A stretch of DNA of 64,000 nt, from the NCBI GenBank assembly GCA_973895155.1, contig OZ316891.1:30075012-30139011 (forward strand), written 5' to 3'. Positions 18,924 through 45,259 of this stretch are shown here, piece by piece (positions within the stretch are counted from its first letter, which is position 1; every line of letters starts with the position of its first letter). This stretch comes from Marsupella aquatica (Eukaryota; Plantae; Marchantiophyta). Made by a program: the position numbers and the translations under genes. Below the pieces are notes generated by a model. That model was given only the letters and a program-made list of their open reading frames with translations, had not been told where the DNA came from and did not search any database.

Positions 18924-20672
18924 AACGAATGAATACACAAGGAATGAAATTTGCAAGTTGATTCCCAACGACAATTCCTGATGGACCTTCTATTGTAGAC
19001 TGTTTGTCAAGACTTAAGACTTGGATAAATTTCGAGTCTTGGATCGGAACTTAACAATATGTCTGCAGGACGCGAATAACTTTCAATAATAGACAAACGT
19101 AAAATGAGAAGAATGACTAAAGCAACAACCTCCTCTGTATCCTAAGCAGGGAAGCTAGAGAAAGGCAGAGAGAGAGTGATCGATCTGTGGAGAAGTGATG
19201 GGCCCCAGCCCCTTAAATAGGTAAGTAGCCGAAGATGTTGAAGGGTTACTGATCGATGACAAAAATGAAGCCTCACTGATTAAAGACTATGTACCGAAGA
19301 TTCTCCATTCTATTAATTAGTCCCGGCAAAACGCCTAGTACGTCTTTCATTTTGATATTCACGATTGCGCGGCACGTAGGGCCGGGAAAGGACTAACCCT
19401 CGCATCCAAACATATGCCTTACCACATACACTAGGTTGTCCCGGCCACCTTGCTAGTCTCATGTTAGTAGTCAATCAGATCGACATGATTGCAGCCCTTG
19501 TGTGCCTCACATCCAAACAACTTGACGTCGCTGGCTTAATTATTAACCGATCGAATCATGAACGGAAGGAAGGAAATGTTGCCGGCTTGGCTTTCTCGCT
19601 GCGCTTCCTTAATTTCCCCTATGTTTCGATCAGCCTACAGATCGAAGGAAGGATGGATGTAATATTGTTTGAATATATAAAGTCAAAACCTGAGAGGAGA
19701 TATTGTCCTGAGTAACTGTATTTTTTACTTTTCATCTAGAATGCATGTTACACTGACTAATGACTGACGAGTTGAGGAAGGACGTTGTCATGAATCATGG
19801 GATCACTGAAGAATACATGACTGATCGAAGAGTGTACGAAGGAGAGGTGATGAATGACCTGGGATTGCTAGCGAGGGAACCCGATCATTTGAGACGAACA
19901 CGGACTGACTTGAGACGTGATGCGTTTATCAATGTATATAAGGCGATAAGTTGACGTCTAGAGCAAGAGCTCTCCAGGCCATTCCTGCAGACGTCTGGGT
20001 ATTTAATTGCTTGCTGAGGGTGCTTTCAAGTAGCGGAGTACGTATTTGAAGCTACTACTCTACCCAAGAGCTAGTAGTGCCTTGTATTCTATCAAAAGGC
20101 GATTTGTTTAGACTTTTGTGTTCAATTAATCGCAACGGGTTCAATCGTGAAATAGAGATCAGCACCAAGGAGCAGCCGGTCGGAGATTGGGATCGAAGCT
20201 TCTTAAAAGCGCGCGCAGAAATAGCAATTTGCTTGGTCCCTTCTTTTATAAACGCGAGAAATTAAGGTACATGATTGATCAATATGGAGAGTCGGAACTC
20301 TAGCGAATATATAATACTGGCAAATCTCCTCAAGAATGGTCTCGCCTGCCTTTGAAGTCTAGCAGTATGGAGACAGCATGCACGGCGGATCTTCGAGAAC
20401 GCAGAGAGCGCAAAGACTGGTTTCGTTGTGGAGTGCGGCATCTCTGGAGACTCGTCAGCACCGTTTTTCCAACTTCGTGACTCCCCGAGGACTCCAGTTG
20501 TGACACTAGTGCAATTGAATCTGGGCATCCCAGGTTTTCTTCGTACGTCAATAAGAGGGTAATTCAACCGGATGTCAAAAAGAAGCTAGTCGTGTTCACA
20601 GTGAACAAGAAGTTACCCAACAGGAAAGCCCTGATGTTTGAGCTGACAATGTCCAAGAAGAAATCATCCCAT

Positions 20673-20900
20673 CACAGGAAAACTTTCCTGCTTTGCACAG
20701 ATGACTTTTGAGAAATGCACCGTCATCTCATGCACAGAGGTGAAAAGGTAAAATGCACTTAAGAATGGTGTGGAAATTATATTTACACCGAATCTAAGTG
20801 CAGAAATCTCCCATAGTGACTTTGCACCAGTATCGGCTTTTAACTTGTCGAGCTTTACGTGCAAAACCCTGCGGAAGTTAAAACAAAGTGCAAATCTTGA
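20673..20900. repeat. Left TIR and subterminal TTTGCAC/GTGCAAA motifs
   Basis: TTTGCAC at 20692 and 20821, GTGCAAA at 20859 and 20888, plus several ATGCAC variants. Confidence 0.65.
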
Positions 20901-22312
20901 GAAGGGAGGAGTAGTACGAACGTGACAGAGTTCAATAAGAAAATCGAACTGCATGTGTACATTGACACATGACAGGAATATGACTGAAGAGATTTCTTGT
21001 AATTAAGCTTGGCAAAACTTTGGGACTTTTGAGAGCAGATTAATTCTAATTACTGGAGGCGAGGATGGCAGAGAAACCACGGCCGCCTCTATAACTTTGT
21101 ACCTGTACCAATCAACATATCGATAGTCTTTAAAGCAACTGTAAGTTCTTAAAGCTAATTCACATACAGTCTTCCCTTGTCGTTGTCGTCGAGATTCAGC
21201 CATTGTGGTGGATCCTTATCAGGGAAAGTAGCACTCAGATCCATTGGCGAAATTCAGTGGACAGATAAATTCACACAACAGCACCTCTAGGGTCGCCCGG
21301 GTATCACAAAACTTTTGTGGGTGAACCGGCTACATACTCAAGTACGTGGCTGGTTGAGATGTTTGCGCAGGTACTCTGCTTCATCGAAAGGCCACTGATA
21401 GTCAGTAACTTGCTGAAAGAATTGTAAACAGCTGAATTTTACATGATTGAGCATGAACGAAGGCTTGAACTATATACCATGAGATGATCTAGCAGGTTTC
21501 AAAACATACTGAAGCGCTTCCCTCTATTTAATTGCTAATTGCTCTGAAACACATGCAGATTATACAAAGGAGGGATAACTTGTATCCTCTACAAAGAAAA
21601 TTCACTGATACAACTACAAGTGACCTTCCTCCAAACTGGTATGATCGAGAAGCCTGAGAACTAAGCATCTAGCGCATAAGAATTTTGCTTTGCATCACTG
21701 GCCTCCTGGTGGGATAGCAAGCCTAATTAAGATTCAGGATAAATAGAATTTACTAACTAGCTACAATGGCACACTTATTCAAAGACTAAAGCACAACGGT
21801 GAGAAACCCCCTGTATTGATCAGGGAGGCATTAAGAAGAAGAGACTGACCTCACATATGTAAGAGATCAACCGCTGTATAATTCATTCGAAGCAACTCCT
21901 TTCTATTTTTCTCATGTTGATATGCTTCTGCTCTGCCGCACTGCAAATTAAGAAGTGTACAGCATCATCTCACGTCATTGTAGAATTATTGACATACTAT
22001 GCAAAGTGAAATTATTTTTCATGTGCTTACCACCTACTAAACTCCTATCAACCTGTGACTCCTTCAATTTCACCACAAAGAACTCAAGACAAATTCTTTA
22101 AGACAGTAGCTAAAATGGATGTGACCCAGGAAGTAACTCACCTGCCAGTGGCCTCAAATTGATTAGCTTTGTAATATCTGTCATGATCAGGTATGTGGAG
22201 CCTCCTTGGTCTCACAAGCTTGGGTCCTGGCTTCTGAGCAAGAAGTGGATCAAAATCTATTCTGGAATCACTCTATTATTGCAAGAAGAGTGTGGATATG
22301 ACCCATGCCTAG

Positions 22313-25048
22313 CTAGCACTCTCCTATCAGATATCTTGATTTATTGTACAAACCAGGTTGTCTAGGGGGAGCTTTTAACTGGTCCCGTTTCAAAAACAAA
22401 CTGCTGGTCCAATTTTTTGGTGCTTTCCATCTCATGGTGGTGGACCCTCTCAAATCTATTTTTGAAAACAAGGTAGGGTCCAGAACTGTCATAATGTTTT
22501 GCCACAGCAAAGTAAAAACTTCATCTGGAGAAAATACCTTGAAGAACTCATGCTCACTAACCTCATAAGCACTTGATTGATCAGGAGCTAGCCAAAGTAC
22601 TTCTACTTTCCTATCTCTATTTTGCAGTTCAATATTTTCTGCATCATAGTGAACCTTAACGATGTATGCCAAATAGAAATTTGCATGAGGTCCACTAGCA
22701 GTTAGTGAAACAATGACAACATCGTTGCACAAAGGCCATGGAGGGCAACACCCAGGTTTCCCAGGCACTAACAAATGCGTTCGGAGAACAGCATCTTGAA
22801 ACTCAAATGCCACAATTGCTTTTTTACCTCTAGGTTCTTGTTTTGTTGGGTGTGAAATGAATCTATGCCTAAGGCTAAACACTGGAAAGACCTTACTTCC
22901 AAGGCTTTCACTTGGGTCATCCAGAAGCAAATTCATGTCTGTATTATCTGTTTTGAACAACACTTCCTCACCACCATCCCCTTCTATGGACACCTCAGTA
23001 TAGCAACAGGCCTCAAAAAAAATCTGGTAGTGACTGTCAAATGCATGGATGAAAAAAGATTTAATTCTACATTTCAACAATGGCCTCTCCTTGTTGCTAT
23101 TCTCAACCACTGCAAGGTCATTCTTCCTGTAGTGCACTCCATCAACAACAACCCCTCGAATAATCTCAATTCGAGGCCTGAACAGGTAGTCATTAGTAAG
23201 GTTCAGAACATTTTCAGCCACCCAATGTGACCTAAGATGTTGTGAAATCTCTCCATCTGGAAATATATCAACCTCCAAACCTTCGTTTGGCCCTATGCCA
23301 ATTCCTTTGGCTACAACCTGTATGCAAGAAGAGTCAAAGCGACCCATATATTGCACCAAGGTCCACAACTGAGTTGCTTTCTCTATACTAGTCACCATAG
23401 ACACCTTGTTTTTGTACAATGTGGGACTCAGAAAATCTCCCACTGCAAGTCCAACTATACGTGGATACAAAGAGCACTGTAATATATGCAACGTTCTCTG
23501 GTCCCTGTGGAGTCCATCTTTGTCTTGCTGCAATTGAAAAAAAAATTCTGAAAATTGTTGACGGCAAAAGTATTGTGCAAAACTCATTTCACTCGATTTA
23601 CTGTTTGTAGTGATGTTGTTGTATCCACTAACCATACGCTCGAAGCCATAACACCAGAATATATCATGATGGCCATGTCGAACTATGTCGTCCAAAATTT
23701 CACCATTCCCTGGAAAACCAGGCAAGTACTTACATCAATGGCAACTACAACAGTCACAAAGTCTAAAGTAAAAGCTACACATCAGTATTTAAAAGTTCAA
23801 ATGGATCATTCAATAATATTTAGTTCAAAATAAATTTATGGTATTATTAACTTTATAGTAGAAACAGTGTTCTTACATACCAGTGACATGCTCCACTATT
23901 CGCCCAGTTGGGCCATATGCTTCTTCTGTAAGCACTCTCCAAGCAGAAAGATGAAGTCTTGCATTCTGAAGCATATCAATTGTCCATCCATGTTTTCTTG
24001 AAACAAGAAAAAACATTCTGCTCAAGCGAATGAGAATTGCACCTTCTGCACCAAGGGGAGTGGCAAGAGTGTGCCCCAATTCTTCCAAGATAGGAGCCGC
24101 ACAGTACATTGTGAATAATAAGTGTTCCTCTGCTTTATAATTGGAAAACTTCCATTTTGATCCCATACCTAGTACATTTTTCACGTACAGAGGAGGACGT
24201 GGCCAGCAAGCCCCTAGTCCAATTGGCGGATTGTTAGTTACAATCTGTAAGACCTTCATCAGCTTCTTCACCTCCGCAGCATTACAAGATTGTAACAAAC
24301 TGTCATTATAAGTTTTGAACACCCCAAGTGCCAAGCAATGCATTGGATCATTGACTAAATCAAGTGATATGTCAAATCCATGAGTATCATATAAGGACCA
24401 CATATCTGAATAGTGTGACAAACCACTCTGTCTCTTGTACTCTGTTTTCTGTTCTTCATTGGTAGCTTCTCTCAAGCATTTGCCAAAATAATACATGCCT
24501 TCTACATCCCTTTTGATTGGTGGGAATCGAACCTGCTTTCTGTTTTGACTGTAAACTACTACTTTTTTCTTTCCTTTATTTGACAGAATGCTTTCTGAAT
24601 ACAAGAGATCACGTCTACAGCCATTGTATCCCATCAATAAAGTACCTCCAATCTTACTTTGGGCTGGCCCATCACCAGTCCACAGCATGGGTATTACTCG
24701 AACAATTATGTGCCTGTCCCTATTATTTGGCATGAGTGAAGGCACAGGATAATCTAACTTCACAGGGAAGCCATTGACAAAACTATTTTGAAAGTCAGCC
24801 CACAGGGGTTTCAGAAAAGCTTGTAACAAGTGATGTTCTTTTTTTCTTTGTAATAACTTAGAGGACATAGGAATAAAAAGTAGAGGAATAGGCCTTGCAA
24901 TTTTTGAATCAGGTAATACTCTTTTCCCACCATTCAGGATAGTAATTTCCACTGTCCAGCAATCCTTTTGAACAGTGGTTGCAGCTTGAAAGCCATCCCA
25001 ATGTCCCATCACAACTATGTTAAATGGTGAACCCATGAGCTCCGCTTG
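22313..25048 (-). CDS. CACTA/EnSpm TnpD-like DDE transposase, 5'-truncated; exons ~25048-23881 and 23709-22313, possibly further small 3' exons
   Basis: Motifs NIVVMGHWDGFQ, AFLKPLWADF..SFVNG, RVIPMLWTGDGPAQSKIGG...GYNGC, DPMHCLALGVFK, YKAEE and DDIVRHG..IFWCYGFERM. A GT..AG intron at 23880-23710 joins the two ORFs in frame (EHVTG|NGEILDD). Confidence 0.85.
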
Positions 25049-25617
25049 TGTAACATGGATTCCTTGAGTAGTGCAAGGTGCGTTGGCTTGACATACGTGT
25101 GTGATCGGATCGGTGCAGGATCGATGGGGTATTGTTGACCGAGATCGTTGTGCCGATTGTATGGAGATTATTGTGGGTTTTGGACATGTGTGGACATGAG
25201 TTCCACTTGTATTCCATTCTCTTGTATTTGTGATGTGGCAGTGTGACTATGTCTGGATGTATGTGACAAGCGATGTATGTTGTGTAGCGAGGAGATTTTA
25301 ATATTTGTTGTGCCAAGGAGATACGAGGAGGCAAGATGTGGAAGGGGAGACCCCTTAAAACTGAAAAAGGAGGAGGGGTGTTGACCAAGTTAAGGAGAAG
25401 GGGGGATGCACATGGATGGGAGTTGGTGTCTTCCAAAATTTTAATATTTGTTGTGCCAAGGAGATACGAGGATGCAAGATGTGGAAGGGGAGACCCCTTA
25501 AAACTGAAAAAGGAGGAGGGGTGTTGACCAAGTTAAGGAGAAGGGGGGATGCACATGGATGGGAAGACAGGGAGGGGGAGCTCAATGGATGACAAAAGGG
25601 GAACAACCTCCTTTACA
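25049..25617. mobile_element. Solo-LTR-like segment abutting the truncated transposase 5' end
   Basis: Begins TGTAA and ends TTACA, with an internal ~140-bp tandem duplication (25296-25563). No matching TSD (GCTTG vs CAATG). Confidence 0.4.
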
Positions 25618-27252
25618 CAATGACATCTTTTATTATCGACTTCTTTTCCAACCTACATCTTGATGGCTGATGATAAGAATTATATAACAAATGTTGTCAA
25701 AAATTTAAATCTCAGCTAAGATTTTCCCTTCAAGTGCTAGCAACGTGCACTTAATGGTCGTTCCTTCTGCTAAGTTTTCAATAAGGGAAATGAACAAAAA
25801 CGTTTTAATTTGCACTTGGGCAATTTCCGCCCCTCTTCATTTGAGTCCTAGTTGGCTGGCCCACTCTCTCGAGTGTTTCAAGGGTGGGAGAGAGTATCGG
25901 TAACTAACTACAAAAAACAGTAAGATAGACAGTAATCAGTGATTTTCCTAAGATGATTTCACTTAAATATGCTGATTTTCCTAAGCTGACCTTAGCGGCA
26001 CTTAACCATAAGTTTTACTCCAGTTAACTTATTTAACCACTTTCTATCTTGGGGGGAGTACTAACAAGTTGTTAACCCTTCTACCCTCTGTCAACAATGT
26101 TATAATGGATAGGGCAATTGTAGAAGAACCCTATGTACACCCTAACCTAAACCACTTGTAGAAGAACCCCATTTAACCCTAAACCTACCCCTTTCCCCTT
26201 AGTTACCACATCAACCAACTTTTGTAATTTTTGGCATCAAACCAATTTTTAGTTTTGGTAGAGCCCAATTGGTAGAAAAATGGCCGGAAAACTAAAGCTC
26301 ATGTTACTAAGAAATCCCAACTAGACCCACATACTGGTTCCCCAAATTGCGCAGTTAGAACTACCAAATTCTAAAGAAAAATGAACAAGTATGTAATGAA
26401 GGGTTTAGGGTCCATTTTCAATGCATGAGATCCATGTGCTTTCTCATGTAGAAAGAATGGAGGTTTGGTCATTTAGTACTCATTCTGTAAGGTTTAGTCT
26501 TGGATATGGTTGACATGCATAATTAATTACCTTTGGATGCTCAGGGCTTATCAATTGTGAGTGAATCTTTCCTGAATGAGTCATGTTTTAAGTTTTTCCA
26601 TGACAAGGTACCTCAATGCATTGGGACAAGTCATGGTTTGGGTTTTGCCATCATAAAGTATACGGATGCATGTGGGCTAGTTATGGTTTAAGTTTTGACA
26701 TCACAAGGGTACCCACACATTTGGGACATGCAAGTCATAATTTAAATTTGTCATTACAAAGTATCCAATATAGGCAACCTAAGAGTAATTTTTTAAGGGG
26801 TTAAGGGTTGGTCTAAGTTAGTGAAGGTACGTAGAGGCATTACTACATGCCACCAAACTACAGGTCTAGTTCTGCTATATTGGCACACTCAACAAGTTTG
26901 GTTTAAATTTTTCCAATATGGGTTATACTAACCAATGATAGTAAATCAATGAAGGTTACCTTATGACAACACTAATAGTAAACCAATGATGTGTATTATT
27001 GAAGTTTCTAAATTCTATGAGTAAACCAATGATGTTTATTATTGAAGTTTCTAAATTCTATGAATCGCTTGGAGTCAATTCATTTGATAGTGTTTGGAAA
27101 CCCGAAGCATAAGCCCCCCACCCCCTGAAGATGTAATTAACCCCCCACCCTTGACACATAACCCCCTAAACCCCCTTTAGTGACCCCACCCCTTTGAGAC
27201 CTAACGGCCCACCCTTCACTTATAAACCCCCTTTAGTGGTTTCTATTAGTGA

Positions 27253-27378
27253 AAATTGAAGCTTTGGTTAAAGATTATGGATTTTTAGTGTTTGTAGGTA
27301 AGTGTGAACATGAGAGATTTGGCAAACCCCTCTTATTACAAGGGGAACATACAAATCCTCTAAGATTGTCTTTTTTGG
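27253..27378. repeat. Left arm of a diverged inverted repeat flanking the Fpg/Nei-like gene
   Basis: TAGTGTTTGTAGGT...TGAACA...AGATTTGGCAAAC...TATTACAAGGGGAACATACAAATCCTCTAAG is the reverse complement of 29618-29737 (and of 33554-33695). Confidence 0.8.
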
Positions 27379-27834
27379 AAGCTCATATGGTATTGGAGTG
27401 ATTTTCAAGCTAGTTGTGAGGTCCAAGTGATCCTCAAGTGCCATTGCCTAGCACTTGTAAGGTTGTATGAGGACCCTTCTATATATACCAATATGCACAA
27501 CACTATTACATTTGCCACTCCAACAACATTTAATCCCGCATTTAATTTCTGGTCATTGGACCCTAAACTGTCCACTTGCTTCAACATTTAAAATCTAATG
27601 ATTGTGCACTCTATTGGCCCCAACCTCAAGTTCATTTGAAAGGTATGGATGAGCACTTTGATTCTATGTTAGTGGTACTCAATAATAAATTCATTTGATT
27701 GACATCCATGACCACTGATTTCAAACATTGCACATTTTTAATTTAGTCACTGATTTCTTCTCACCCAACTCTTTGCGGTTTTGTATGTGATCCCAAGATA
27801 AAAATTTTGATGTAAAATTTCTTTTGATTTCAGG

Positions 27835-29232
27835 ATGCCAGAAGCTATAACTTACTATGACATGGCTCGACGAATTGCTACAGCAATTCCTATTGAGGCA
27901 AGTTTTAGGATTATTGTGCATCTGTTCAATTTTGGTAAAGGCTCGTTGAAGTGTTTTGACTTTTGGCAAAGCCATCAACACAATATTGTGAACATTGATG
28001 GCAAAAAAGTTTGTCATCACGGCAAGATGTTGTTGTTTCCAATCATGCATGTGAACGATGACTATTCAATTTGGGTGAAGATTACATTGAGCTTACATGG
28101 GCAAGTTGTTATTGTCAAAGCTATAGAGGCTCAACAACTCAGTAATCCAACCAAACCAAATCCGCCTTATGCTCTGTTATTATTTCAAAACATGGATTCA
28201 TCTGGTCAATCAATTGCTCTTGTGGATCGAAATCGACTTGCATGTGCTGAATTTATCTCCACTCAGTCACACCTTGATCCAAGAAATTTTCAGATGAAAT
28301 CTGATGATTGTGATGAGTGGATTGTACGAGGTTATTGTACAATGACTCAATACAAGCAATGGCGCCATTTCATTATTGGAAACACTACAAAATGGAGTAA
28401 CCTCTCAAAATCAAGTAACACAAGCATCTTTGCCTTTATGATTGACAATCAGAATTACTTTGAGGGTATTGGCACTTCTCATTGCTCAGAGATATTGCAC
28501 ATTGCCAGAGAACATCCAGCTACATTAGCACGAGTCATAATGCAATCACACAAACGATTGAGCAAACTTTGTGATGCTGTAAAGACATTCTATGATAAGG
28601 CTTACTCTCAAGAATATCTTCAACATGTTCCTGCCCGAAGTTCTGGTTCAGCTTTTTATGAGTCACCGGCAACATCTTTGTACATCAACACCCGGTTTCA
28701 TAAAGTCTATGGAAAAACAAATACTGGGGTGCTCATTCCAGTTAAAGTTTATGATAGCATGGTAAGCAAACATCAACTTGATCCATGCTACCAATTGTCT
28801 ACCACAAAGGTAGGCAATCGTCTTGTTCACCTCACACAAAGAAAAAGGGTGAAAGTGTATGCAATCTACATACGCGCCAATCGGGGCATAGTTTATACTT
28901 GCATTTATCTTCCACATCCATATTCTGACAATCCTGAGATTGTGAAGGGCAATGTCGAGAGACCACTAGTGGTTCCTGATGAAAAAGCAGTTTGCAAAGG
29001 ATTTGGCCAAACTAGACGAGCAGAGATTGGTATTGCTTCTTTCATGGATACTAAGCAAATTGAAGAGCAAGAGTGTCATTCTACATATAGACGTTATCCA
29101 CTACGTACTGGTGCTGTTGGTCGTCCTCGACTTACCAAACGTTTATATTCAGTTCAAAACATCACTATAAAAAAGGCTTCCAAATCTATTAGGCTTGGAC
29201 AGGTACCCAATGAGTATATTAGAGAGACTTAG
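27835..29232 (+). CDS. Fpg/Nei (MutM/NEIL)-family DNA glycosylase/AP-lyase-like protein, 465 aa, intronless
   Basis: N-terminal M-P-E; HHGKMLLF (cf. RxGKxL); TLSLHG (cf. HLGMxG); LVDRNRLA (cf. FxDxRxFG); H2TH motif FMIDNQNYFEGIGTSHCSEILHIAREHP (cf. LLDQ..IAGIGNIYADE.L..A.IHP); KVYGK. A TTTCAG acceptor lies immediately before the ATG. Confidence 0.85.
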   Translation: MPEAITYYDMARRIATAIPIEASFRIIVHLFNFGKGSLKCFDFWQSHQHNIVNIDGKKVCHHGKMLLFPIMHVNDDYSIWVKITLSLHGQVVIVKAIEAQQLSNPTKPNPPYALLLFQNMDSSGQSIALVDRNRLACAEFISTQSHLDPRNFQMKSDDCDEWIVRGYCTMTQYKQWRHFIIGNTTKWSNLSKSSNTSIFAFMIDNQNYFEGIGTSHCSEILHIAREHPATLARVIMQSHKRLSKLCDAVKTFYDKAYSQEYLQHVPARSSGSAFYESPATSLYINTRFHKVYGKTNTGVLIPVKVYDSMVSKHQLDPCYQLSTTKVGNRLVHLTQRKRVKVYAIYIRANRGIVYTCIYLPHPYSDNPEIVKGNVERPLVVPDEKAVCKGFGQTRRAEIGIASFMDTKQIEEQECHSTYRRYPLRTGAVGRPRLTKRLYSVQNITIKKASKSIRLGQVPNEYIRET

Positions 29233-29534
29233 ATTAGATTAATTTGTTTTGCCAAGGAGTTACAAAGTACATGCCCTATCCATTTGCAAATTTATGCGTT
29301 GTTGTCATAACCAGGTTTCCTTGTCAATTTTCCTTTTGAGGTTTTGGAGGCCTGTCATTTAATACTGCATATAACTCCATGCCAAATGTACAAATTAAGG
29401 TGCATTGTGAACTGGCTATAAATAGGATAGCCAACATTGTGTATTTTAACTAGCACATGTCAATCTAGCAAATGTACCATTCCTTATATACCCTACTATA
29501 CAAATTATGGGCACCCCAAGGAAAAACTGCCATA

Positions 29535-29737
29535 TCCCCCTGTGGTAAATCAAATTTATCCTACCTTATCTAGGGCTTTTACCTAGTTTAATGTTGGTCT
29601 TCTGCAATCCTACTTACAACAAAAACAACCTTAGAGGATTTGTATGTTCTCCTTGTAATATTTGTTGTTTGCCAAATCTTGTGTGTTCATGTGGGGTTTA
29701 ACCCTAAACCTACAAACACTAGAACTGCCTATAATTT
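29535..29737. repeat. 203-bp direct repeat, left copy (flanks LINE)
   Basis: Matches 33471-33673 with one mismatch seen (TTTGTTGTTT vs TTTGCTGTTT). Confidence 0.92.
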
Positions 29738-29748
29738 CCTTGGAATGG

Positions 29749-32700
29749 TTTTTTTTATAAAGTTTAATACCGTGAAAGACCCCACGGATAGGGGGAACAA
29801 TAGCCCTTAATACAGGGACAGCAACAGCACACTAGCGAGCCACAAAGAGAGCCCAAAAGCACAAAAGAGAGCATCAAAGCCCCAGGGAGAGCCCCCCCTC
29901 AAAGAAGGGAAATAACACCGATCAAGAGAGCACCCATGCCCTTCCCACAGCAGCCCCCCAAAAAGCAGACCCCTCAATCAGCAACGCCGCCGCTAGAGGG
30001 CACCAAGAGAATCCTGTCCCCACCCCGTCTCAACCAGATTTGCCTCGTTCCCCGCAACCATTCCTGAGCCCGGTTCAACCGAGAGCGACGCCGCCCAAAG
30101 CGTAAACCAGCCCCAACCGCATGGATGTGATTGGCAGTCTCAGCAAGCAGCAGGCCCAAGTCAAATGAACGTCCCACCTTGTCAGAGAACATATGTTCAT
30201 TTCTTCCCAGCCAAATCATCCAGAGAGTCTGATATACACAAAAGATCCTAGCAGTGTGAATAGGCTCCGGTCCTGTCGATGCATCAAGAATAGCCAGCAG
30301 ACCACCTCCAATGGGTAAGCAAAGCTCCGTCAAAATCCTGTCACACATCCTCCAGCAACATGAGGCATGGGAACATTCAATGAACAAATGTTACATCGTC
30401 TCCAAGACCCCACAGCAAAGCTTGCAATTCCCAGTACCAGCCTGGATACGGAGGGCCCGTTGACCAGTAAACAATCCACCAACCAGGATCCGCCAGATAA
30501 AGGTTTTTGCCCTGCAGGAGAGGTCAGAAATCCACAGCTTCTTCCATCCAATGCACCATTCAATTTCCGACCGGTGTGAGGACCAGCACCTATTAAGCAG
30601 CACATGAAGGCTCATCTTGGGTCTCAAGAACTGGTAGACCCTGCAGTTGGTGATCTGAAAGTCCTTGAGAGGTTCTGCCCTGTCAGACCAGCGCCACTGT
30701 CTGGCCGGAGGATCCCTGTCCCACCTGCAGGCAGTTGACTCCCAAATTCTCCCTAGGAACGCTCTAGCCAGCCCTCTGTGCTCCCCCGTGAATCCTCGCA
30801 GCACCTGCCCCCTAAGCGGAAGGTCTTTCCAGCCCCCTGTCTCCACCGACCATCCGTCCTGAATTGATCTCATTCCCAAGCGTCCACAAATAGCAGTGAC
30901 TCCTACAATATCCACATTTGGCAATGAATTGAAATCTACCATACATCTAATTGCATCGTTAATGCTCCAGCGTCCAGGGGCACCATATCTCCCAGGACAA
31001 AAAGCCAGATGGGCACGCAGCTCCTCCCAAGCCTTCCATAGACCACTTGTATACCTGAGACCACCGGCTGCCCTAGGAGTACAGAGCAGAAGCCTATCCT
31101 TGAACGTGTAATTGTTTCTTCTGATCACCTTGTAATTCAACCATCCCATTAAAGATAAGTTGGCTGCCAGCATCTTTGACCATTCCCTGTCTGGATACTC
31201 TAGGGCCTTAGTGAACCATTGTGATAATAATGCATTGGAGTGGCTTCTGAAGTCCTTGAATCCCAGGCCGCCCTCTATTTTTGGAAGTGTCATCTTGTCC
31301 CATGCCACCAGCGGAATTTTCTTCCCACCTGCAGGATTATATCCCCACAGAAAATCTCTACTGAGGGCAATGAGTTTCTTGGCCAGACCCGCTGAAGCCT
31401 TGAGGTGCATCACATGGTAGATTGGGATGGCCTGGAGCACGTGTTTGACCAATAAGGTTCGACCTGTGAAAGAGAGGAGCTTATTTGTCCAGGATGACAG
31501 TCGTGAGCTGATTTTATCTAGGCAGAATCTGTGCAGTTGCTCAGTCTTCAACCCGGCCCCCAAGGGAGCGCCCAGATATTTCTGAACCTCCCCCATTGCA
31601 CTCACTTGACAGCCAGAGTACAGCAGCCAATCCGGGATGACCTCAATTGCCAAGGGAATCACCACAGATTTTCGTAGGTTCAGCTTTGCTCCAGAACCCA
31701 TTTCATAACATGCAAGTGCAGTTTGTGCCTGGGTGAAAGCTTCCTCCGTGGCAGGAATGAACATTCCAACATCATCTGCGAATAATCTGTAGCATATTGT
31801 GAGTGTGTCCGTGATTGACAGTCCACTAAGTCTCCCAGCCTCCATCTCCGTAGCTAAGAAGTCCATCAGCGGTTGTGTCGAGATGACAAAAAGTAGGGGC
31901 GACAAGGGGCAGCCCTGTCTCACCCCCCTCTTAAGCTCAATCATACCCGTCGCAAAACCATTGACCATTGCCTTCGAGAAAGATCCAGCCAACAGAGCCC
32001 GTACCAGTGTGATAAAGTGGCCACTTATTCCCAGTAAGTGCATTGTGTCCCATATGTATTCGTGATTCACCCTGTCAAAGGCCTTTTCGAAATCCAACTT
32101 CAAGAAAAGTGCCTTCGTCTTCTTGTGCTGTATCCAGTCACATGCGAGCCAGGCCAGTGAGATGTTTTCCAGAATGTGGCGCCCCTGTATAAATCCGGTC
32201 TGTTGGGGGCTGATTATCTTGTTCATGATTTCTTGTAACCGCAATGCCAGGATCTTAGCAATGACTTTGTACGTTGTGTTCAACATTGTAAGGGGACGCC
32301 AGTCCTTCAGTGATCTCTTATCAGGCTTCTTCGGAATGAGCTTTATTATCCCTTCTTTTAACGCACTATCAATCTCTCCTGTCATCCAGAATTCTTGTAT
32401 CATTTCCACCAAGTCCTGTCCCAGAAACTCCCAGCATGCACGCAGTACTTCTGCCATTAAGCCGTCTGGGCCAGGCGATTTGTCTCCTGGTAGCATCCAA
32501 AGCACTTCCTTCACCTCTTTAGTTGTCGGGAGAGCTTCCAATTTCATTCTCTCTGCCGCTGTAAGCGCAAATTTTGTGTGTTGCAGTAGACGTCTCCTCT
32601 CTTGTCGTCGTTCTTGTGTCTCCCTTTGTGAGGGTTCCTGTGGTGCATAAAGTGCTTGACACATTTTCTCCACTTCAAGCACAATGCTTGCCGCCTCTGT

Positions 32701-33470
32701 TATCTCCGTCCCATCCTCTTTGAGAATCAGGTTCATGGTTTCTCGGGCGCGTTTAGCCTTTACTATCGCATAGAAGAACTTTGTTGATTCGTCTCCTTCT
32801 CCCAGCCATTTAATCCTTGCAAGTCTCCGTCCCTTATTAGCCACTTCCAACTCGGTTGCATGCAGTGTGTCTTCCGTTTCCGTGTATTCCTTGATTTCAT
32901 CCTCTGTGTGTTCCTCCAGAATGGATGCTTTCAGTGCTCTCATTCTCGCTCTAAGAAACTCCATCTCAACCTCTGCCAGCCTTGGTCTTGCTTGTAACTC
33001 CATGTATTTTTGCCTAAAATTGGAGCACGCTTTTGAAAATCGCAGCACAGGGTTTGCAAATTCCCTCCTTCCTTCCCTCCAGGCTCCTTCTAGAAGCGCC
33101 AGGTCCTCCTTGTTGCTTAGAAGCGCTGGATTGGCCATGAATAGTCTCACCTTACCTCGCTCCACCTTCTGACCTGCATCTCTGAACCTCCCTTTCAGTA
33201 TCACCGGGTCATGGTCTGATAACGCTGATCCTCCTTCATGCACCAGCTCTACTCTCTCCTCTAACCACCATCCCTTCTCGCTAATGTAGAACCATTAATC
33301 CCCTTCTCATCCTTCTCCATGTGAATTGGGCACCCGTAGCGCCCCCGGTGATCTCCCACGCATCTACCAGGTCAAAGCGCGTTTTTAAGAAGCGCCAGAA
33401 TTCCGCTTCTCTTCCGCCGATCAGAGGTGATCTCCCGGATGAGTCCGCTCTTCTTTCTGTCATGTTGAAG
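29749..33470 (-). mobile_element. 5'-truncated L1-clade LINE with ORF2 (partial APE endonuclease, RT, Zn knuckle), inactive
   Basis: Motifs GDFN, SDHDPV, KSPGPDG, WRPLTMLNTTYK, LDFEKAFDRV, GVRQGCPLSP, FADD, YLG and C-terminal CKLC...ET*HLFIEC. Short poly(A) at 29749-29756. Frameshifting deletion near 33290 (LDR motif lost) and premature TAA at 30391. Confidence 0.95.
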
Positions 33471-33673
33471 TCCCCCTGTGGTAAATCAAATTTATCCTAC
33501 CTTATCTAGGGCTTTTACCTAGTTTAATGTTGGTCTTCTGCAATCCTACTTACAACAAAAACAACCTTAGAGGATTTGTATGTTCTCCTTGTAATATTTG
33601 CTGTTTGCCAAATCTTGTGTGTTCATGTGGGGTTTAACCCTAAACCTACAAACACTAGAACTGCCTATAATTT
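33471..33673. repeat. 203-bp direct repeat, right copy (flanks LINE)
   Basis: Matches 29535-29737; its first bases TCCCCC overlap the LINE GGD codons (microhomology). Confidence 0.92.
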
Positions 33674-35529
33674 GAAACCAGAACATCAATTTTGGTCTTC
33701 CAAACAGTGTCAATGAGTTATAAAATAATGGGCAATGATGCATGACTTGGATGTTTGCATGTCATGCATCATGTCATTCTACAAAATGAATTTGCACACA
33801 AAAGAAGTCAATGATTGTCTAGTAAAACAAATATTATCTGCATTATTTAGTTTTCCCTCCCTGTAGTGTTTCCTACTTGTTAAATTCCTACATTTGAAGT
33901 GGCGGATATTCCCTATTGATCATGTAATGTGGGATGTTCACTTTACACACTTTGTGCTTTTCCCTACTTTAGTGTTAGCCTGGGTGTTAGCATGTTAGGT
34001 AAAGGGTCCCTAATTAAGTGGGGCTTTTACCAACATGGGAGTGTGTCCAATCTGCCTTGTGTGCACCTTATCACCAAGAGTCTCAAATATTCTTGGACAA
34101 CATGTGACTGTAAAGCAATGTTTACTCATTTTCCCCATTTTGTAATTAAATGGACCATCAAAGGGATTTGACAGGATCCCTTATTATGGTTTTATATATA
34201 GATTTCTAGTGACCTAGCCTCATTGCCCAATCATATAATTGGACCAAGCTAGATCGAGAAGTAGTATACTCGATCACTGAACAGTTCAAGGTCAAACTAT
34301 TGGGCACAGCAAAGTACTAAGGTAAGTATAGAAAATAAATAAGCTATATCCAAAAGGGGAAAACTACTTGAGTAATCTACTAACTTCTAAGTTGGATTTA
34401 GGATTAACGCCCCAAACCAATATATCTGTCTACAAAATGGGGATGGAGCAAACTCCCTTCCACACTGCTATGTCACTGCTGATCCCCCCCCCCCCCCCTA
34501 CTCGGGCCCCTACTGCTATAAATTTTGAGAACTAAGTATATTCAAGAGTATATTACCAAATGTACAGAGATTCCATGAAGGTGAGATAGTTCTTGGGACC
34601 TGAAAATTGGATGGCCGCCATCCATTTCCTTATGGAAAAATTCCACAAGCACAACCAATGAGAGGGTGTATATCATTTTCTGTGAATGAGATGGCTTAAG
34701 TTTGCAATTTGTAATCTAAAGTTTTAAGGAATCAAAAGGATTCTGGATCACAGCTTACATTTATTTGCTGCACATAAAGCCATCTTTGTCCAAGTCAACC
34801 AATCACATGTAAGTGAATAAAATATATACCAGGTGATTTTCAACCAATCCACAACGCTAGCTGCATGCATTCAAAGGCTTGAAGCAGGATGTTGCAACTG
34901 ATGGCAAAATTGTTCCTTTATATATATATATATATAGCTAATAATACCAAAAACAAACATGAGAGTAATTAAGTTGTGCTTGTAGTATATGGCATTTAAC
35001 CTCAACTTTGACACGTTTGTATTCAACACAACGTACTGACTGTTTGGATTTCAGCATTCTTGGTTTAAAATACCTTCTATTTTATCAATGGTACCCAACT
35101 TACTAAATGCAGTAGTGTATGATATATAAGTATATCACTTGTATTAATACACTGCCCGTGGGATACCTAGGCAGCAAAACATTCCTTGTTGCAGCAAAAC
35201 ATTCCCTTATTGCCGTACAATTAGCCTGCCTTTACTGCTCTGCTCAGGGTGTATTTTGTTGGGGCACGAATAATTTGAACTCTATTGGCGCCAGCCTCGG
35301 GAAGTAAATTAGAATAACCTGAACTCTGTTGGCGCCAGCCTTGGAAAGTAAATTAGGTTTTTAAAGCTTATGCGTGTCATATGCGCCCCCTGCCCTTGAC
35401 AAGCAGCAGCCCAGTATCACTTCTACACTGCTGTACTGGCTCGAAGTTCTCTCGTGCTTTAGCTTGTCTTCAAAGTGAACACCCTAATCCATACATAGAG
35501 CAAAGAGTCTGGTTCAGGTTTGGAGCAGA

Positions 35530-36190
35530 GCTATTGGAAGTGAGCAACTAACGTACTTAATCAAAGTTTACTTGGAGATTGAGAAGTAGACAAGATCGCA
35601 TTCGGACCTATTGCTACGTCGCAGTTGGAAGTGAGCTGTTAGAAATGAGCAACTAACGTACTTAATCGAAGTTTACTTGGAGATTGAGAAGTAGACCAGA
35701 TCGCGTTCGGACCTATTGCTACGTCGCTGCTGGAAGTGAGCTGAATTCGACCACCCCACCAAATCGAATTAGTCTACATGACGGCAGCCCAGTTCGTTTT
35801 GCTGATTGCTGGAAGTGAGCAGCGTTCGGACCTAGTTGCGTCGTTGCTTGGATTGAAGTGAGTTTAATTCGACCACCCCACCAAATTGAATTAGTTTACA
35901 TTACGGCAGCCCAGTTCGTTTTGCTGATTGCTAGAAGTGAGCAGCGTTCGGATCTAGTTGCTTGGTCGCTATTGGAAGTGAGCTTAATTCAACCACCCCA
36001 CTCATACCAAATTGAATTATTTTACATTACGGCAGCCCAGTTTGGGTTGCTTGTTTTGCTGATTGTCGGAAGTGAGCAGCAGTCGTACCTAGTTGCTTCG
36101 TTGCTATTGGAAGTGAGCTTAATTCGACCACCCCACCGAATTGAATTATAGTTTACGTTACGACAGCCCAGTCTGTTTTGATGATAGCTT
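35530..36190. repeat. Degenerate ~105-130 bp tandem repeats upstream of the SAM-domain gene
   Basis: Recurrent GGAAGTGAGC, AATTCGACCACCCCACC, ACGGCAGCCCAGTT and CGTTCGGACCTA modules; fainter copies continue to ~37300. Confidence 0.85.
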
Positions 36191-37335
36191 GAAGTGATCA
36201 GCATGGAATTCAAGTTAACTGCAAATCGGCAATAACAAACCTGTTACGTGGACGACTCGAAGCTCCTTCAAATGCCGTTATGAGTTTGTAATGCATATAG
36301 TAACATCGAGAGTAAAACATAGCTCAGTGGTTACGTGGATCTTATTGTTGTATGTGCTTGGATGGATGGGGAAATGAGTGGTCGTTGCATGAGTAGTTAC
36401 ACAAGGCTTACATTGCAGTACATAAGCTAATAGCCCAGTTTGTTTTTGCAGGTCTGGAGGTGATTATATTGTGACTGTTGGGAGTGAGTGCCCCACTGTA
36501 CAGCAGAGCGTGGCCCAGACAATAAGTACAGCAAAGTACAGCAAGCGTGGCCCAGTTTGTCTGCAGAGGAGGTGGTTAATTTCTGTAAGTTGAAAGTAAG
36601 TGCGCACTGAAATAGAAGTTTGCATACAAGAGCAGAGTAGTAACCAAATTAAGTACCCCAGTTTGTTCTTTGGAGCAAGTTCATTTGCAGTAGTTTGAAG
36701 TGAGCACATTCAAAATTAGTAGCAGGAGAAGTAACGAGGTTATTTTTGGAGGTGACATATTACTTGCTTTTGAAAATTGAGCACCATTTTTGGAGCTGAT
36801 TAACTACTGTTGGAGGTGAGGAATGTACCAAATTGAAAATTACATATTTAAGTGTAGATCAAGAAGTAGCTTGGCAGTTGAATTTTTAAACAAATTGACT
36901 TGCTGTTGGAAAGCACGGCCCCATTGCAACATAGAGCGCACAAGCAGCCCATTTCATTAATTAGAGGAGATGATCAACTGCTGTTGGAAGTGAGCATGGC
37001 ACTAAGTTGAAGTTTTTCCCACTGTGCAGAGCTAGAAGTAGCCAAAATAGCTGCCCAGTTTTGTTTGGAGCAAGTTGGCTTGTTGTTCATAGCACTGTGC
37101 TGAATTGAAGGACAAAGAGCAAAGATTGGCAGAGGCAGCCTGTTTGATTTGGAGCAAGTTCGATCTGATCGATCATCAAACTGAAATTTTCAGAGGAAAA
37201 AGTAGTCGTGTGCCTAGCTCAGATCTGAATTTAGTTTCACTGTAGAGAAGCAGCCCAGTGCTAAACCCAGACCTGCAAAGCAATCCGTTTTAGACTAGAA
37301 ATAGTAGCCAGTTTATTTTTCACATCCTCATTGTC

Positions 37336-40300
37336 ATGGCTGCTGTGAAGGGCATGGATCCTTTGCAACTGACCAAATTTCTCTTGGAGAAAAACCTAAT
37401 TGAGAAGGAGCAGTCAAAGGCCGTTATTCTCCAGGATATAGATGGGGAAATTCTTTTGGAGATGTCAGTAGATGAGCTTATGGCTCACCTTCAATACAAT
37501 TTCGGGAAAGCTACCCGCCTAAAAGGCTGGCTGAAAAAGAACAGTAAGTCTGTACCAACTGTCAAACCAGCAGTTAATAGTGAGAGTGAGATGAGGACTG
37601 TGCAGAGTGTCGAACCAGCAGTTAATAGTGAGAGTGAGATGAGGACTGTGCAGAGTGTCAAACCAGCAATTAATAGTGAGAGTGACATGAGGACTGTGCA
37701 GAGAGTGGCACTTGTAAACAAGGACTGTAACAGTCTTGTTAACAGAGAAAGTGAGAAAGTTATAAATTGATTACCACAGCAGAGATCACTGGTTGATGAG
37801 ACCCCATATTCCTGCAATAGCAATGACAAAGGTCGTGTGAGAAAGCTGAGCTCTACTAAGTTGCCATTAGACCCTGTTGTTCATATTGTTGAGCTCAAGA
37901 GTAGAGTCTTTGACAAAAAACCTACAGGAGAGTATACAAATATGTGGGGAAAGGGTTATCTTGAAACCACATAGTTTATCTGGAGAAAATGACAAGAGAC
38001 ATAGGGGAACCAAAAAAACTTGAGAAATGACCAGAAAAAAAACTCTCAAGGAAATTGGTTCTATGCAGCATTAGGTCTCTTACAAAGTGATAAATAGATA
38101 AGTTAGTACAATCATGCAATCAGACACCCGACATGTTCTTGAGAGCCTACAGTTATTCTCAAGACACCACTTAGTACCATGACTACCGCACTTCACGACT
38201 TGGGTTTGCCCTTGGCCCACTGGAGACGTCACTCCCCTCAAATGTGCTTATGGTGACCTACCACCTGTGGACCCAACTTTGGTCCCTTGATTTTGGCCCC
38301 TCACCAGGACTCCAACCAAGGTGACCAGGCATGAAGCTAACTTGTTAGGCCCAGAATTTTCTTGTTAGGTGTTCATAGGTAAAGTACCTTTTCCCGTTGT
38401 GATTGGGCCTACGCATTGCTCATGCCGAGGCTCTCAGGACTCGTCGCCCATAGAGGGTCCCGGGCGGCTCCACCCAAGTGCCGTCAATTTTCATGCCTTT
38501 AGCGTTCATTCCACATGAACCAAACTTCATTGCACTTAGGCCCAAGAGGAGCTATCACTCAAGCCCTCAAAATTGAGAGTCCATCCAGGGGTCCGGACAG
38601 TCTGCTCTAAGCCCAACCCTTATCGTGGCCCAACCAGCTCATAATGCCACTCCAAATCCCTGGTGCGCAACCCTAGCTCAACGCATTGCCTTTGCTAGAG
38701 CAACGCTTCCTTGCTCTCAAGTCTGCTTATACTTAGTCCTTCTGGATGGTCATGATGCCTGGACCATGGGGGAGCTTGGCACCAGAGCTAAGTGGTAGAG
38801 TAGTCAAGTTTTGTGACTCCAACTTGCGAGAGGGGTTAGTGCGCTCGCATTGCGGGAGCTAGTGATGTCATGGGTGTCCTAGCAACTTTGGGATACATGA
38901 GCAGGCAATGAGCGTGGACTAGTATGTAGCCTTTCGGGAGGCCCAACACGTAGAATGCCCAGGAGTTTAGGTCTTTAATGTGGGGGAGGAAGGGTACTAG
39001 ACTCGCGAGCAGACCGAAGCGAAACGACCTGTGAGATTTTGAGGATTGACATTGACAGGATTCCTGTAGCCCGAATGGAGAGAAATCCCAACAAATTTGA
39101 GAGACGATCATGGTTCGCAATTGAAAAAGAAAGACGTTAAGAATAGAAGCGAAATAGTAGAAGGATTGCCAGTTGTTACCTGAGGACTGCACTGAGTGGG
39201 ATTCGAAGAGAATCCATAAGGACCCGATAGCAAAAGCCCAAAAGAGAGGAAGGAACCAGCAACCTTGCCCCTTACGCTAGCAGCCAGGAAAATTGAAACA
39301 GCGATAGAGCAACCGAGAACGGGATTTCTACAGAAGACCATCGTAATGGGACAGCATAAGAACCAGATGGCGAAGCAGTAGACCCGCGAGCGAAACCACA
39401 GACGATTTAGGAAGTGAAATTGAGGAAGCGCAAGAGCAACGAAGCCCGAGCATAAGCAGATTCATAAGGACACCATAGGGAGACAGGCGAAAACATCCTT
39501 GAAACAATCCAGTCCTTGAGGCCGTGGCGGCAGCAGAAGCGATGACCACAGATCAAAACAAGACCGGGGCACAAAAATGAGAATAGCAAGGAAGAGAAAA
39601 AGACTTCCAATTTGAACAGCAAAGACAGCCGCAACGCATCCATAAGGACAAGAGGCGCCACAGGAGCACCAAAAAAAGGAATAGAGGCAGAACACGCAAC
39701 CTCAAGGCCCAAAATCATCGACAGAACGTCGAAGCAAGGCCAAACCGCTAAGTGCACCACCTATAACCGCAAAACCTCCATAATTGCATTTCATAACAAA
39801 GAAAATCAACCTTACAAAGCCGCATGTGCACTTAACCAAGGCACGAGTAAATTACCACCCATAACTGCACAAACTGCAAAACTTCATTACTGCACATTTT
39901 AACAAAGGAAAGAGCTAATACAAAGGAATTCTTGCAGTTATACATTTACAAAGACAACCTAAATACTAAGTGCAAACCCTAAAATTCTGCAAAAACCCAA
40001 ACATTCTTGCTTTACTCACCCACGACTTAGATTACTCTCCTCAACCCTTTCTCCACCATTACATGCGGCAAATGTGCAGTGTCTTTTGACTATATATATA
40101 TATATTATATAAACACGCACAACAACGCTGCACGCCAGGACCTTAGAGATGACCAACCTCGAGAAACTTACCTTCCCAGCCCTAGAAATCGATGGCGGCA
40201 CTACCTAGAATGGTCCATGAACCTAAAAGAAAACCTAACCTCGCTAACCCTACTCCCTGCGATAGGGCTCGCTCAACCCATCCTAGCCGGCGAACCACAA

Positions 40301-43300: not shown

Positions 43301-43621
43301 TCTTATGAATTTCAGATTTTAAAGTAGTCTAGGACCAGCTAGCAAGCTAGTATTCTGGAATTGCCTTGTGAATATGCTATGTATATCCATCTGGTCTGTT
43401 ATTTGTTGTCTGTACATGGTAACCCCTATACAGTTTCACCAGGATTTCAATTGTTCTTCTATGGAGGAAGATCAAATGACCAATACCCAGGCAGGTACTT
43501 ACTCTATCAAGAACTCTATGTTGCTTGTAGACCTAGGTTACAATCTTATTTTCTTCTTACTTTATGTGTTCTGCTGTTTTGTGCAGGTGACTCAGTCATG
43601 AAGCCGCCCCGGTTTCTATAG
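37336..43621 (+). pseudogene. Multi-exon transposon-borne gene with an N-terminal SAM domain, decayed
   Basis: SAM-like LTKFLLEKNL...QDIDGEILLEMSVDELMAHLQYNFGKATRLKGWL, then three 48-bp (16-aa) repeats at 37561-37704. The frame continues through isolated stops and across the 38119-40383 insert. Canonical GT/AG exon borders near 41344, 41668, 41997, 42080, 42247, 42429, 42710, 43316, 43494 and 43587. The 3' end is uncertain. Confidence 0.6.
38119..40383 (+). mobile_element. LTR-retrotransposon fragment ending in a truncated Ty1/copia gag
   Basis: Bounded by CATGCA at 38113-38118 and 40384-40389. Frameshifted KLTFPALEIDG/HYLEWSMNL...KSKALVFLRRHIHRFLQRQYM resembles the copia (Bianca-like) gag N-terminus. 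Confidence 0.6.
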
Positions 43622-44562
43622 CTGCAGTTGCTGCAGTTGTCGTCGTTCATGTATTAATAACAGGCATACTGTGAAAAGGTTCAAATTAAATTTTTGCCAA
43701 CTGAAGGTTTAGAAGAAATTTTTTTTTTGTGAGTGTCTGTCATATGGACACAATACTCGATCTGTGGCTAGCTAGTTAGCTATAATTTGTAGAGAATTTA
43801 GGAGGACTACAAGGCATTTTACAAATCAAGGCTAGTACTTCCTGTACTCACGGTTTGTTGGATGTGTATGGATGATTTAATATAGTTGTACCCTCAAACT
43901 GAATTAAATGCCTAAGCACTAACAGCTTAAGCTTATAAAATCTCAAATTAAGTGAGTTAAATTGCCCCTATGTACATTAACAGCTTCAACTTGTAGTGGT
44001 CATGAGCAGATTTGTATTGGAAGGGCTGTGGTGGTCGTTGGTTTCTTATTGGCTCTTAGAGGCTATCTACTGGCAAGGTACAGGACAAATTTTTACTTTC
44101 CCTCCCGCTTTGCCTCGATCACACCATTTGGCATCAGCATTAGGTGCGGGCTGTTTTCATCTTCACGAAACAACAACTTAAAGTACCAACAGCAATTATT
44201 CGAAAGACTTTCTGTTTTTCTTAAATTTGGTCATTTTCTTTATTGACACAATCTCAGTTAAGCAGTAACTCTCTTCAATCAATCAAGCATACCTTAAACT
44301 ATTTACTTTGTATATAGTCTCATAGCTCAGAGGTGTCGACTTTATTCCTATGTCTTGGGTTCACTTTACAATGCTGTGCCTTCTTTTTCTTGAATGGATT
44401 AGCCGAAGAGAACCTGAGGAAGCAGAGGTACAACTAACGGGCGGGATGTCGTTAATGAAAGACCTCCTGCCGAGTAGCTTCTGGCCATCGCAGATGTCAG
44501 CAAAAGAAGTAGCACTTATCTTCCAATGAATGGGGTACGTGGTGTTAGACGATCAGAGCAAT

Positions 44563-44975: not shown

Positions 44976-45009
44976 GATTCCATCTCCATAAGGCTGAGTT
45001 CGAGTGAAA

Positions 45010-45259
45010 TTCTTGCTTTGCACTTAATTAAGTCAAGCAGCATTATCTTTTCCACTTACGATATCAGGGTGTAATATTTATCTGGACAACTTTTCCACCG
45101 AATAGTTTTACACCTGTGTGTTTCTGTTTTGCACCGAAGCTTGATTTTGCACTCAATTTGAGTGCATTGGTCCACAGTGGACCTTTTGCACTTTAGATGC
45201 TAATAACGGTGTAAAAAGCCTACTACTGCACCTCAGGCAAAAGCAAAACTTTTCCTGTG
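45010..45259. repeat. Right subterminal TTTGCAC motifs and right TIR
   Basis: TTTGCAC at 45017, 45128, 45146 and 45185; terminus AAACTTTTCCTGTG. Confidence 0.65.

Follow-up and report, generated by a model that had tools for sequence, protein, structure and literature searches.

A transposon-borne gene for a predicted Fpg/Nei-fold DNA glycosylase of a mostly fungal family, and its possible role against silencing

The 64,000-nucleotide stretch of DNA analysed here (the window) carries one open reading frame that raises two questions: whether it encodes an enzyme of the Fpg/Nei superfamily, and what such a gene would be doing at this locus. A preliminary description had presented it as a highly diverged Fpg/Nei-like protein with the catalytic N-terminus kept and the DNA-contact motifs altered. 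The frame is as described there, stop-free over 465 codons with a Met-Pro-Glu start (Table 1). The conserved Lys of HHGKML (residues 61-66) is Lys64, and the motifs usually read as HLGMxG and GIGNIY are indeed TLSLHG (residues 84-89) and GIGTSH (residues 211-216). The reported absence of a C4 zinc finger extends to the longer members of the family, CxxC..CxxC being found in the C-terminal half of 0 of 56 family proteins of at least 400 aa. The tail, called long and basic, is basic but moderately so (13 K/R vs 5 D/E in the last 60 residues) and of low confidence in the model discussed below. As for the AT-hook-like VGRPR (residues 428-432), its G-R-P is conserved in the family (51/56, 49/54 and 50/54 rows, the last two being Arg430 and Pro431), but no AT-hook profile matches it. 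Its residues 1-461 are collinear with P0003 and P0021, two relatives at 59-64%; these two, together with P0004 and P0006, are extended by an acidic tail that is absent from the window copy. Upstream, a TATA-like box is followed by a candidate donor (27298) and acceptor (ending at 27833), which together point to a 5'UTR intron and would leave Met-Pro-Glu as the start; the 8-mer of the candidate donor occurs 7 times in the window, both strands counted.

Table 1. Positions of the features discussed in the text (window coordinates unless a metagenomic locus is named).
Feature	Position	Strand	Remarks
CACTA/EnSpm-type insertion, 24,587 bp	20673..45259		CAC...GTG ends, 10-bp perfect TIR; empty site in three paralogous tandem units
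Left CAT copy, 3-bp target duplication	20670..20672	+	
Right CAT copy, 3-bp target duplication	45260..45262	+	
Transposase, second exon	22313..23710	-	38% to the same Riccia sorocarpa protein as the next exon
Tnp2-type transposase exon	23873..25045	-	48-49% to a Riccia sorocarpa protein; Atlas 0.95 to Transposase_21 clusters
CAG/CTG-poor block with the gene, LINE left out	24993..34409		Edges 24.8-25.1 kb and 34.1-35.2 kb; possibly a nested unit
TATA-like box, inferred promoter	27221..27226	+	Sole TATAAA in 27001-27834
Inverted repeat, left arm	27252..27381	+	Degenerate, brackets the gene; 74% over 145 columns; score 132 vs shuffle maximum 41
Inferred 5'UTR intron, 536 bp	27298..27833	+	Consensus donor; pyrimidine-rich acceptor, ending 1 base before ATG
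Predicted Fpg/Nei-fold glycosylase ORF	27835..29232	+	465 aa, stop-free, one coding exon, start Met-Pro-Glu
Nested LINE insertion	29738..33470	-	RVT_1 E 5e-32; 203-bp direct duplication 29535-29737 = 33471-33673
Inverted repeat, right arm	33549..33693	-	Partial second copy 29613-29737, inside the 203-bp duplication
~100-bp upstream module	L002:1134-1835 and 4200-4299; L003:985-1090 and 3518-3623; L004:9415-9555; L009:9519-9834	both orientations	

Searched singly, the window protein matches Pfam H2TH at E 0.0017, under the gathering cut-off, and finds nothing significant among solved structures (best E 0.15). A family profile of 17 sequences reaches human NEIL1 at E 5.5e-7, and one of 66 sequences reaches it at 1.2e-14, with Arabidopsis FPG at 1.5e-7 and Lactococcus Fpg at 1e-6. 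The AlphaFold model of the window protein (pLDDT 84, pTM 0.83) contains both the N-terminal beta-sandwich and the helical H2TH domain, can be laid over NEIL1 and Fpg from residue 2 to residue 372 (Z 19.5-21.1), and in a Foldseek search (E 1e-10) has only Fpg/Nei structures among its top 50 matches; viral Fpg structures fit the fold no better than cellular ones. Profile and structure searches, two of the checks proposed with the preliminary description, thus both recover the Fpg/H2TH fold and bear out the Fpg/Nei-like identity. The fold is secure as a prediction, and by that predicted fold and its catalytic residues the protein belongs to the Fpg/Nei superfamily. Judged by its residues, it is not an orthologue of NEIL1 or plant FPG, because several of the defining contact residues fail. 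As to the proposal that VYAIYIRANRGIVY (residues 341-354) may be a zincless finger, a beta-hairpin is predicted at 342-355, within the span superposed on NEIL1, and the finger Arg is variable, Arg350 being present in 13/41 rows of a gappy alignment region. PF09292 (Neil1-DNA_bind) is matched at E 0.01 by 0 of the 66 family members.

Residue counts given here are of rows with a residue at the column in question in the 66-row family alignment. The catalytic residues are kept in most of them -- Pro2 in 40/46, Glu3 in 38/43 and Lys64 in 41/49 -- and 43 of the 56 long family proteins (at least 400 aa) start with MPE. Other conserved columns are Asp131 (57/58), Gly211 (66/66), Gly213 (65/66) and Tyr292 (49/63). 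In NEIL1 the void-filling residues are described as Met81, Arg118 and Phe120, with Arg118 stabilising the opposite base (PMC10164570, PMC10711445). The profile alignment places the family's D-r-n-R-L opposite NEIL1 D116-I-R-R-F120, and G-I-G-T-S-H opposite G-I-G-N-Y-L, so that of the void-filling triad Leu87 fits, while Arg118 is replaced by Asn133 (36/58) and Phe120 by Leu135 (52/58); the H2TH Asn that contacts the lesion phosphate, Asn176 in NEIL1, becomes Thr214, with Thr in 34/66 rows. NEIL2 is reported to depart from the triad as well (PMC10711445), so the failed triad limits the subfamily and not the superfamily. Beyond the shared fold the family adds a GIASF segment with an invariant G-x-x-S-F (Gly399 55/55, Phe403 53/55, pLDDT ~82). 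On this alignment the family as a whole keeps the presumptive centre of chemistry and has its DNA-reading surface rewritten; the alterations noticed in the window copy are family traits and not peculiar to it.

An exhaustive profile search gave 421 matches at E <=0.001, of which 162 reach 1e-10 and 42 reach 1e-30, and among the best 150 of the 421 none exceeds 699 aa; sequence searches found 16 and 18 proteins, the closest relatives at 59-73% identity. All 11 members that could be named, of 30 looked up, are fungal (Watsoniomyces, Sclerophora, Maublancomyces, Lasallia, Ascobolus, Arthrobotrys, Orbilia, Trametes and Mycena), and two Choiromyces proteins were added by sequence search. Near-identical cluster members number 5 in Sclerophora, 3 in Watsoniomyces and 3 in Orbilia ellipsospora. 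Pfam H2TH is matched at E 0.01 by 13/66 members and its gathering score is reached by none, which would explain why the family has stayed unannotated. It is an unnamed Fpg/Nei family, mostly fungal and often multicopy, and is not plant FPG. Word-limited searches confirmed 0 of 70 pattern matches in viral contigs and 0 of 71 in prokaryote genomes, and found none in phage records. A giant-virus origin was considered, and no viral member was found in viral contigs or phage records; the available part of the moss NCLDV paper names uracil-DNA glycosylase only (PMC4083422).

In the trees the window protein groups with ascomycete family members, within a fully supported group of sequences that in turn joins Lasallia and relatives (FastTree 100; only 89/93 in a 19-row IQ-TREE run). 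A constraint uniting nine named ascomycete rows apart from the window group was rejected (AU p 0.017, for a group picked after the first tree, in trees that are rooted on two basidiomycete rows and hold no plant FPG). Transfer from ascomycete elements to the plant is the likely course on these trees.

The window holds four tandem kelch units (kelch by Pfam), which we take to be F-box/kelch, and the second of these is split by the insertion that contains the glycosylase gene. The tandem genes (7697-8878, 17809-18989, 46771-47955 and 54613-55794, minus strand) are mostly 94-99% identical in DNA, the second copy being frameshifted; beyond them lies an 18-19-bp satellite array at 61200-63300, with an inverted related copy near 59790-59840. 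The insertion has the CAC...GTG termini, TIR and 3-bp TSD given as the EnSpm criteria (PMC12730594, section 3.1.5). The glycosylase gene is therefore transposon-borne, a point that the preliminary description had missed. Of the transposase two exons are recognisable, whose ORFs resemble Tnp2 (Transposase_21) clusters at Atlas 0.95 with 180-189 shared features. The more conserved of the two, 23873..25045, presumably carries the first two catalytic Asp motifs. The Riccia homologue, found in a search confined to proteins of 679-2000 aa, has a weak Transposase_21 match (E 4e-4). The likeness of these exons to a Riccia protein makes a land plant the likely host, perhaps a bryophyte. For the window transposase ORFs themselves there is no direct Pfam match, the 5' part encoding the N-terminus was not found in the window, and a single-sequence model (pLDDT 33) is unusable.

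Several details of the element may be recorded alongside. In the 23873-25045 segment the expected C(2)C motif is CxxD (GCRRD), as it is in the Riccia homologue P0175; the gene models of both Riccia homologues, P0175 and P0176, are fused to a peroxidase or dehydrogenase domain, probably as annotation artefacts. A short CpG-rich stretch at 25060-25160 lies directly upstream of the conserved transposase segment, the remainder of the gene being CpG-poor. On the plus strand, ~37300-43600 is probably a second multi-exon CACTA gene, a candidate TnpA-like accessory with no Pfam match, apparently interrupted by an insertion near 38100-40470; its first exon we take to be SAM-like. Tandem duplications at 25295-25564 (143-bp units), 35520-36200 (~105-120-bp) and 44563-44879 (157-bp) are possible binding-site arrays.

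Whether the gene is native cargo of the CACTA element or part of a separate unit nested within it is a finer question. We lean slightly towards a separate, decayed unit of ~5.5 kb that landed in the 5' portion of the transposase gene of the CACTA element. The block around the gene has a CWG density of 0.014 per base vs 0.035, and it begins where homology to the transposase ends (25045), the transposase N-terminus not being found in the window; the gene is moreover bracketed by an inverted-repeat pair of its own, as in the metagenomic loci L002 and L003 described below. Against this, the block has no TIR and TSD, IS3EU-type or Helitron-type ends that could be found: of 24 IS3EU-type end pairs around the gene 3 reach 4/6 TSD bases and none does better, and the best TAYGG/CCRTA pair, 25160/35217, with 4/6, is within chance. 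TET genes are described as moving between superfamilies without ends of their own (Kojima, PMC12730594). Native CACTA cargo is the other reading, and we put it just short of an even call; under either one the gene sits in mobile DNA. RIP was rejected as the source of this composition, since TG+CA shows no depletion in the CWG-poor block (o/e 1.1-1.45). No Rfam match was found in 24800-35400, and a sigma-70 scan gave chance levels, such a bacterial-type signal being irrelevant to a eukaryote. The LINE nested in the block has a 950-codon open frame with RT and is apparently 5'-truncated; the duplication flanking it is 99.5% identical and, at 203 bp, far above the usual LINE target duplication.

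The composition of the gene records selection on the protein. At codon positions 1-2 CpG is as frequent as expected (19 observed vs 16.8), whereas at all other positions 7 are observed vs 34.9 expected (p 2.6e-5), and the surviving CpGs are almost only in Arg codons: methylation-type loss has stripped CpG wherever the protein tolerated it, which is a sign of purifying selection. Fungal pairs give dN/dS of 0.11-0.23 (6 pairs, 80-252 codons), rough values, one pair including an intron-like segment. The window copy matches 43/49 family-conserved columns; of the Arg positions invariant in three close relatives it has changed 12/25, vs 52/239 of other positions, so it is somewhat eroded. CpG o/e is 0.40 in the element, 0.6-0.8 in the host flanks and lowest, 0.06-0.11, in the gene's own flanks. 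With the element CpG-poor and the gene's flanks poorest, there is no sign of protection in the window.

A metagenome scan confirmed 13 fungal loci out of 184 pattern matches; these are not independent, L003 and L007 being one locus and ten having closely numbered dataset ids. An integrase-core rva_4 ORF lies downstream of the glycosylase in 6 of the 13, belonging to two families (L004/L005 and L008/L009/L010/L012), with Clr5 present in L004 and L005 among the 29 chosen ORFs of the loci that were scanned. These six have the same sharp left end, TACGG, which adjoins different flanks (4 and 2), and fit the IS3EU-type definition, given for IS3EU/GingerRoot as TAYGG...CCRTA ends, a 6-bp TSD and an integrase-core transposase (PMC12730594, PMC10045372); the glycosylase is beside the left end in both families. 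A complete element is present in L003/L007: its 2,956 bp run from TACGG to CCGTA within a perfect 6-bp duplication and hold the glycosylase, no other gene having been found in them; an empty site for this element was not seen. No transposase or element ends were seen in L002 and L006, and L001 and L013 do not extend far enough for a judgement. The start codon of L006 is gone, and in L011, where the sequence stops shortly after the gene, the match reaches no further than residue 264. At L009:16930-17250 the IS3EU element has a GC-rich insertion that L012 lacks at the corresponding position.

Upstream of the start, at 169-951 bp and in either orientation, all 13 loci have the CpG-centred motif AAG[CT]GAAA[TC]. 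It belongs to a homologous AT-rich module of ~100 bp ending in AAAGCGAAATT and common to different fungal element families; it is tandemly repeated in L002 and in L008/L009/L012, and mirrored downstream in L002 and L003. The motif could be a target of the enzyme or a transposase site. It was not found beside the window gene, the nearest variant lying 1.9 kb upstream among 5 matches in the window. No TET/JBP Pfam match was obtained among 93 ORFs of the window element or the 29 chosen locus ORFs (most loci being without right ends), so an oxidation partner has not been seen; PE-type TETs are said to be recognised solely by structure-based alignment (PMC12730594).

What might such an enzyme do for a transposon? 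The explanation that we prefer, though tentatively and as something short of probable, is a transposon-encoded anti-silencing or anti-RIP glycosylase that probably moved from ascomycetes to the plant. The carried enzyme would excise a silencing-related base from the element's own DNA -- 5-methylcytosine, one of its oxidised forms, or T/U opposite G after deamination -- and host repair would then restore cytosine. Met1 would be removed and Pro2 would attack C1', as in other Fpg/Nei enzymes; loss of the opposite-base-reading Arg and of the H2TH Asn would shift the substrate and perhaps weaken strand cleavage, while the GIASF segment and GRP hook would steer the enzyme to the element. The element would gain by avoiding silencing through methylation as well as RIP or CpG decay, and the window copy would descend from an ascomycete element. 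In favour of this explanation are the match to Fpg/Nei, the kept catalytic residues, the purifying selection, carriage by two unrelated kinds of transposon, the motif conserved beside the fungal genes and, as precedents, the TET, VANC and TnpA systems discussed below. Against it are the TET/JBP partner not seen among the ORFs scanned, the CpG loss of the window element and above all of the gene's own flanks, the Arg erosion of the window copy, the variable finger Arg, and the fungal motif, which was not found beside the window gene and could be a transposase site. No Fpg/Nei enzyme is known to us to remove 5mC itself. NEIL1 is reported to excise 5caC (PMC5566547). Hairpin ends, also suggested as a substrate in the preliminary description, find no support in the analysis.

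An active but generic enzyme for lesions or AP sites, aiding transposition through the removal of abasic or oxidised sites from element ends, target-site gaps or single-stranded intermediates, would equally keep its catalytic residues, and NEIL2, which is described as lacking an Arg118 equivalent, with Asn in the loop, and as preferring AP sites and bubble or single-stranded DNA (PMC10711445), provides a precedent. We think this rather unlikely: the gene occurs with two unrelated transposase types and in a transposase-free element, and the residues associated with contacting the phosphate and with lyase activity, namely the H2TH Asn and the finger Arg, have been replaced or vary. The rewritten contact residues, the new invariant G-x-x-S-F segment and GRP hook, and the motif copies clustered beside the gene would also suit a sequence-specific binder of little or no catalytic activity, similar to VANC or TnpA, which at the conserved motif would block silencing or bring in host demethylases; this is improbable, since binding alone would not obviously need Pro2, Glu3 and Lys64, which are present in ~85-90% of rows across proteins only 17-30% identical.

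It is quite improbable that an ordinary oxidative-damage repair gene was captured by transposons, to the benefit of the host or as a passenger, with the window copy perhaps now decaying. Arguing against such a capture, selection is purifying when transposon-borne families are compared, the gene lies at one and the same place beside the left end in two IS3EU families, and the cis motif is conserved; the nearest solved relatives are, however, repair enzymes, the window copy shows Arg erosion and loss of the acidic tail, and the damaged start of L006 and the truncated match of L011 point the same way. The boldest form of the anti-silencing or anti-RIP explanation is unlikely: a motif-guided demethylase or anti-RIP glycosylase on an Fpg/Nei fold that would be a second, independent origin of 5mC excision beside DEMETER/ROS1, exchanged by IS3EU and CACTA elements and brought into a land plant from ascomycetes.

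If true, an anti-silencing glycosylase would give transposons a new route out of silencing: transposon TET oxidases and non-enzymatic anti-silencing factors are known, and a base-excision enzyme of the transposon's own would fill the missing step of the arms race. The survival of DNA transposons in filamentous fungi despite RIP, MIP and methylation would then become open to direct test. Regardless of substrate, the family is a compact Fpg/Nei family of hundreds of proteins with what appears to be a rewritten DNA-reading surface, and a candidate for transfer from fungus to plant. Our literature searches brought up no paper on an Fpg/Nei gene borne by a transposon.

Of the known enzymes, human NEIL1 is the most similar, with a two-domain fold shared over residues 2-372 (Z 21.1, rmsd 3.1 A, 263 aligned) and the best profile match, including the GPC segment and H2TH, Pro2, Glu3, the Lys and the Tyr of VYG, which we take to be the equivalent of NEIL1 Tyr263. 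Unlike NEIL1, with which it has 15% identity, the window protein reads Asn/Leu/Thr for Arg118/Phe120/Asn176 and belongs to a family in which the finger Arg is not conserved, and that family adds the GIASF segment and GRP hook and is transposon-borne and multicopy. Plant FPG (Arabidopsis MMH) and bacterial Fpg/MutM have the same fold (Z 19.7 and 20-20.7) but give weaker profile matches (1.5e-7 and 1e-6), and the window protein is without a C4 finger.

As cargo, the gene is most readily compared with the TET/JBP dioxygenases found in several fungal DNA-transposon superfamilies, including IS3EU and EnSpm, of Pezizomycetes and Agaricomycetes, for which an anti-silencing role has been proposed (Kojima 2025, PMC12730594). 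In both cases a base-modifying enzyme is carried by several DNA-transposon superfamilies; in the window family, however, the cargo is a predicted glycosylase, which would act at the base-removal step, and it reaches a likely plant genome. The main text of Kojima 2025 (PMC12730594) makes no mention of Fpg or Nei, and unannotated copies in the consensus elements are possible. VANC of VANDAL is described as an anti-silencing factor with clustered target motifs (PMC5735166), and Spm TnpA as one whose anti-silencing needs the host glycosylases ROS1/DML2/DML3 (bioRxiv 10.64898/2026.08.24.746577). Both resemble the present case in being transposon-encoded accessory proteins with short motifs clustered in the non-coding DNA of the element, but where TnpA uses host ROS1/DML, an element of the window type would itself supply the glycosylase. 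The DEMETER/ROS1 5mC glycosylases, which belong to the HhH-GPD superfamily, distinct from Fpg/Nei, would be doing the same demethylating base excision if the best explanation holds, but they are host-encoded and their activity has been demonstrated.
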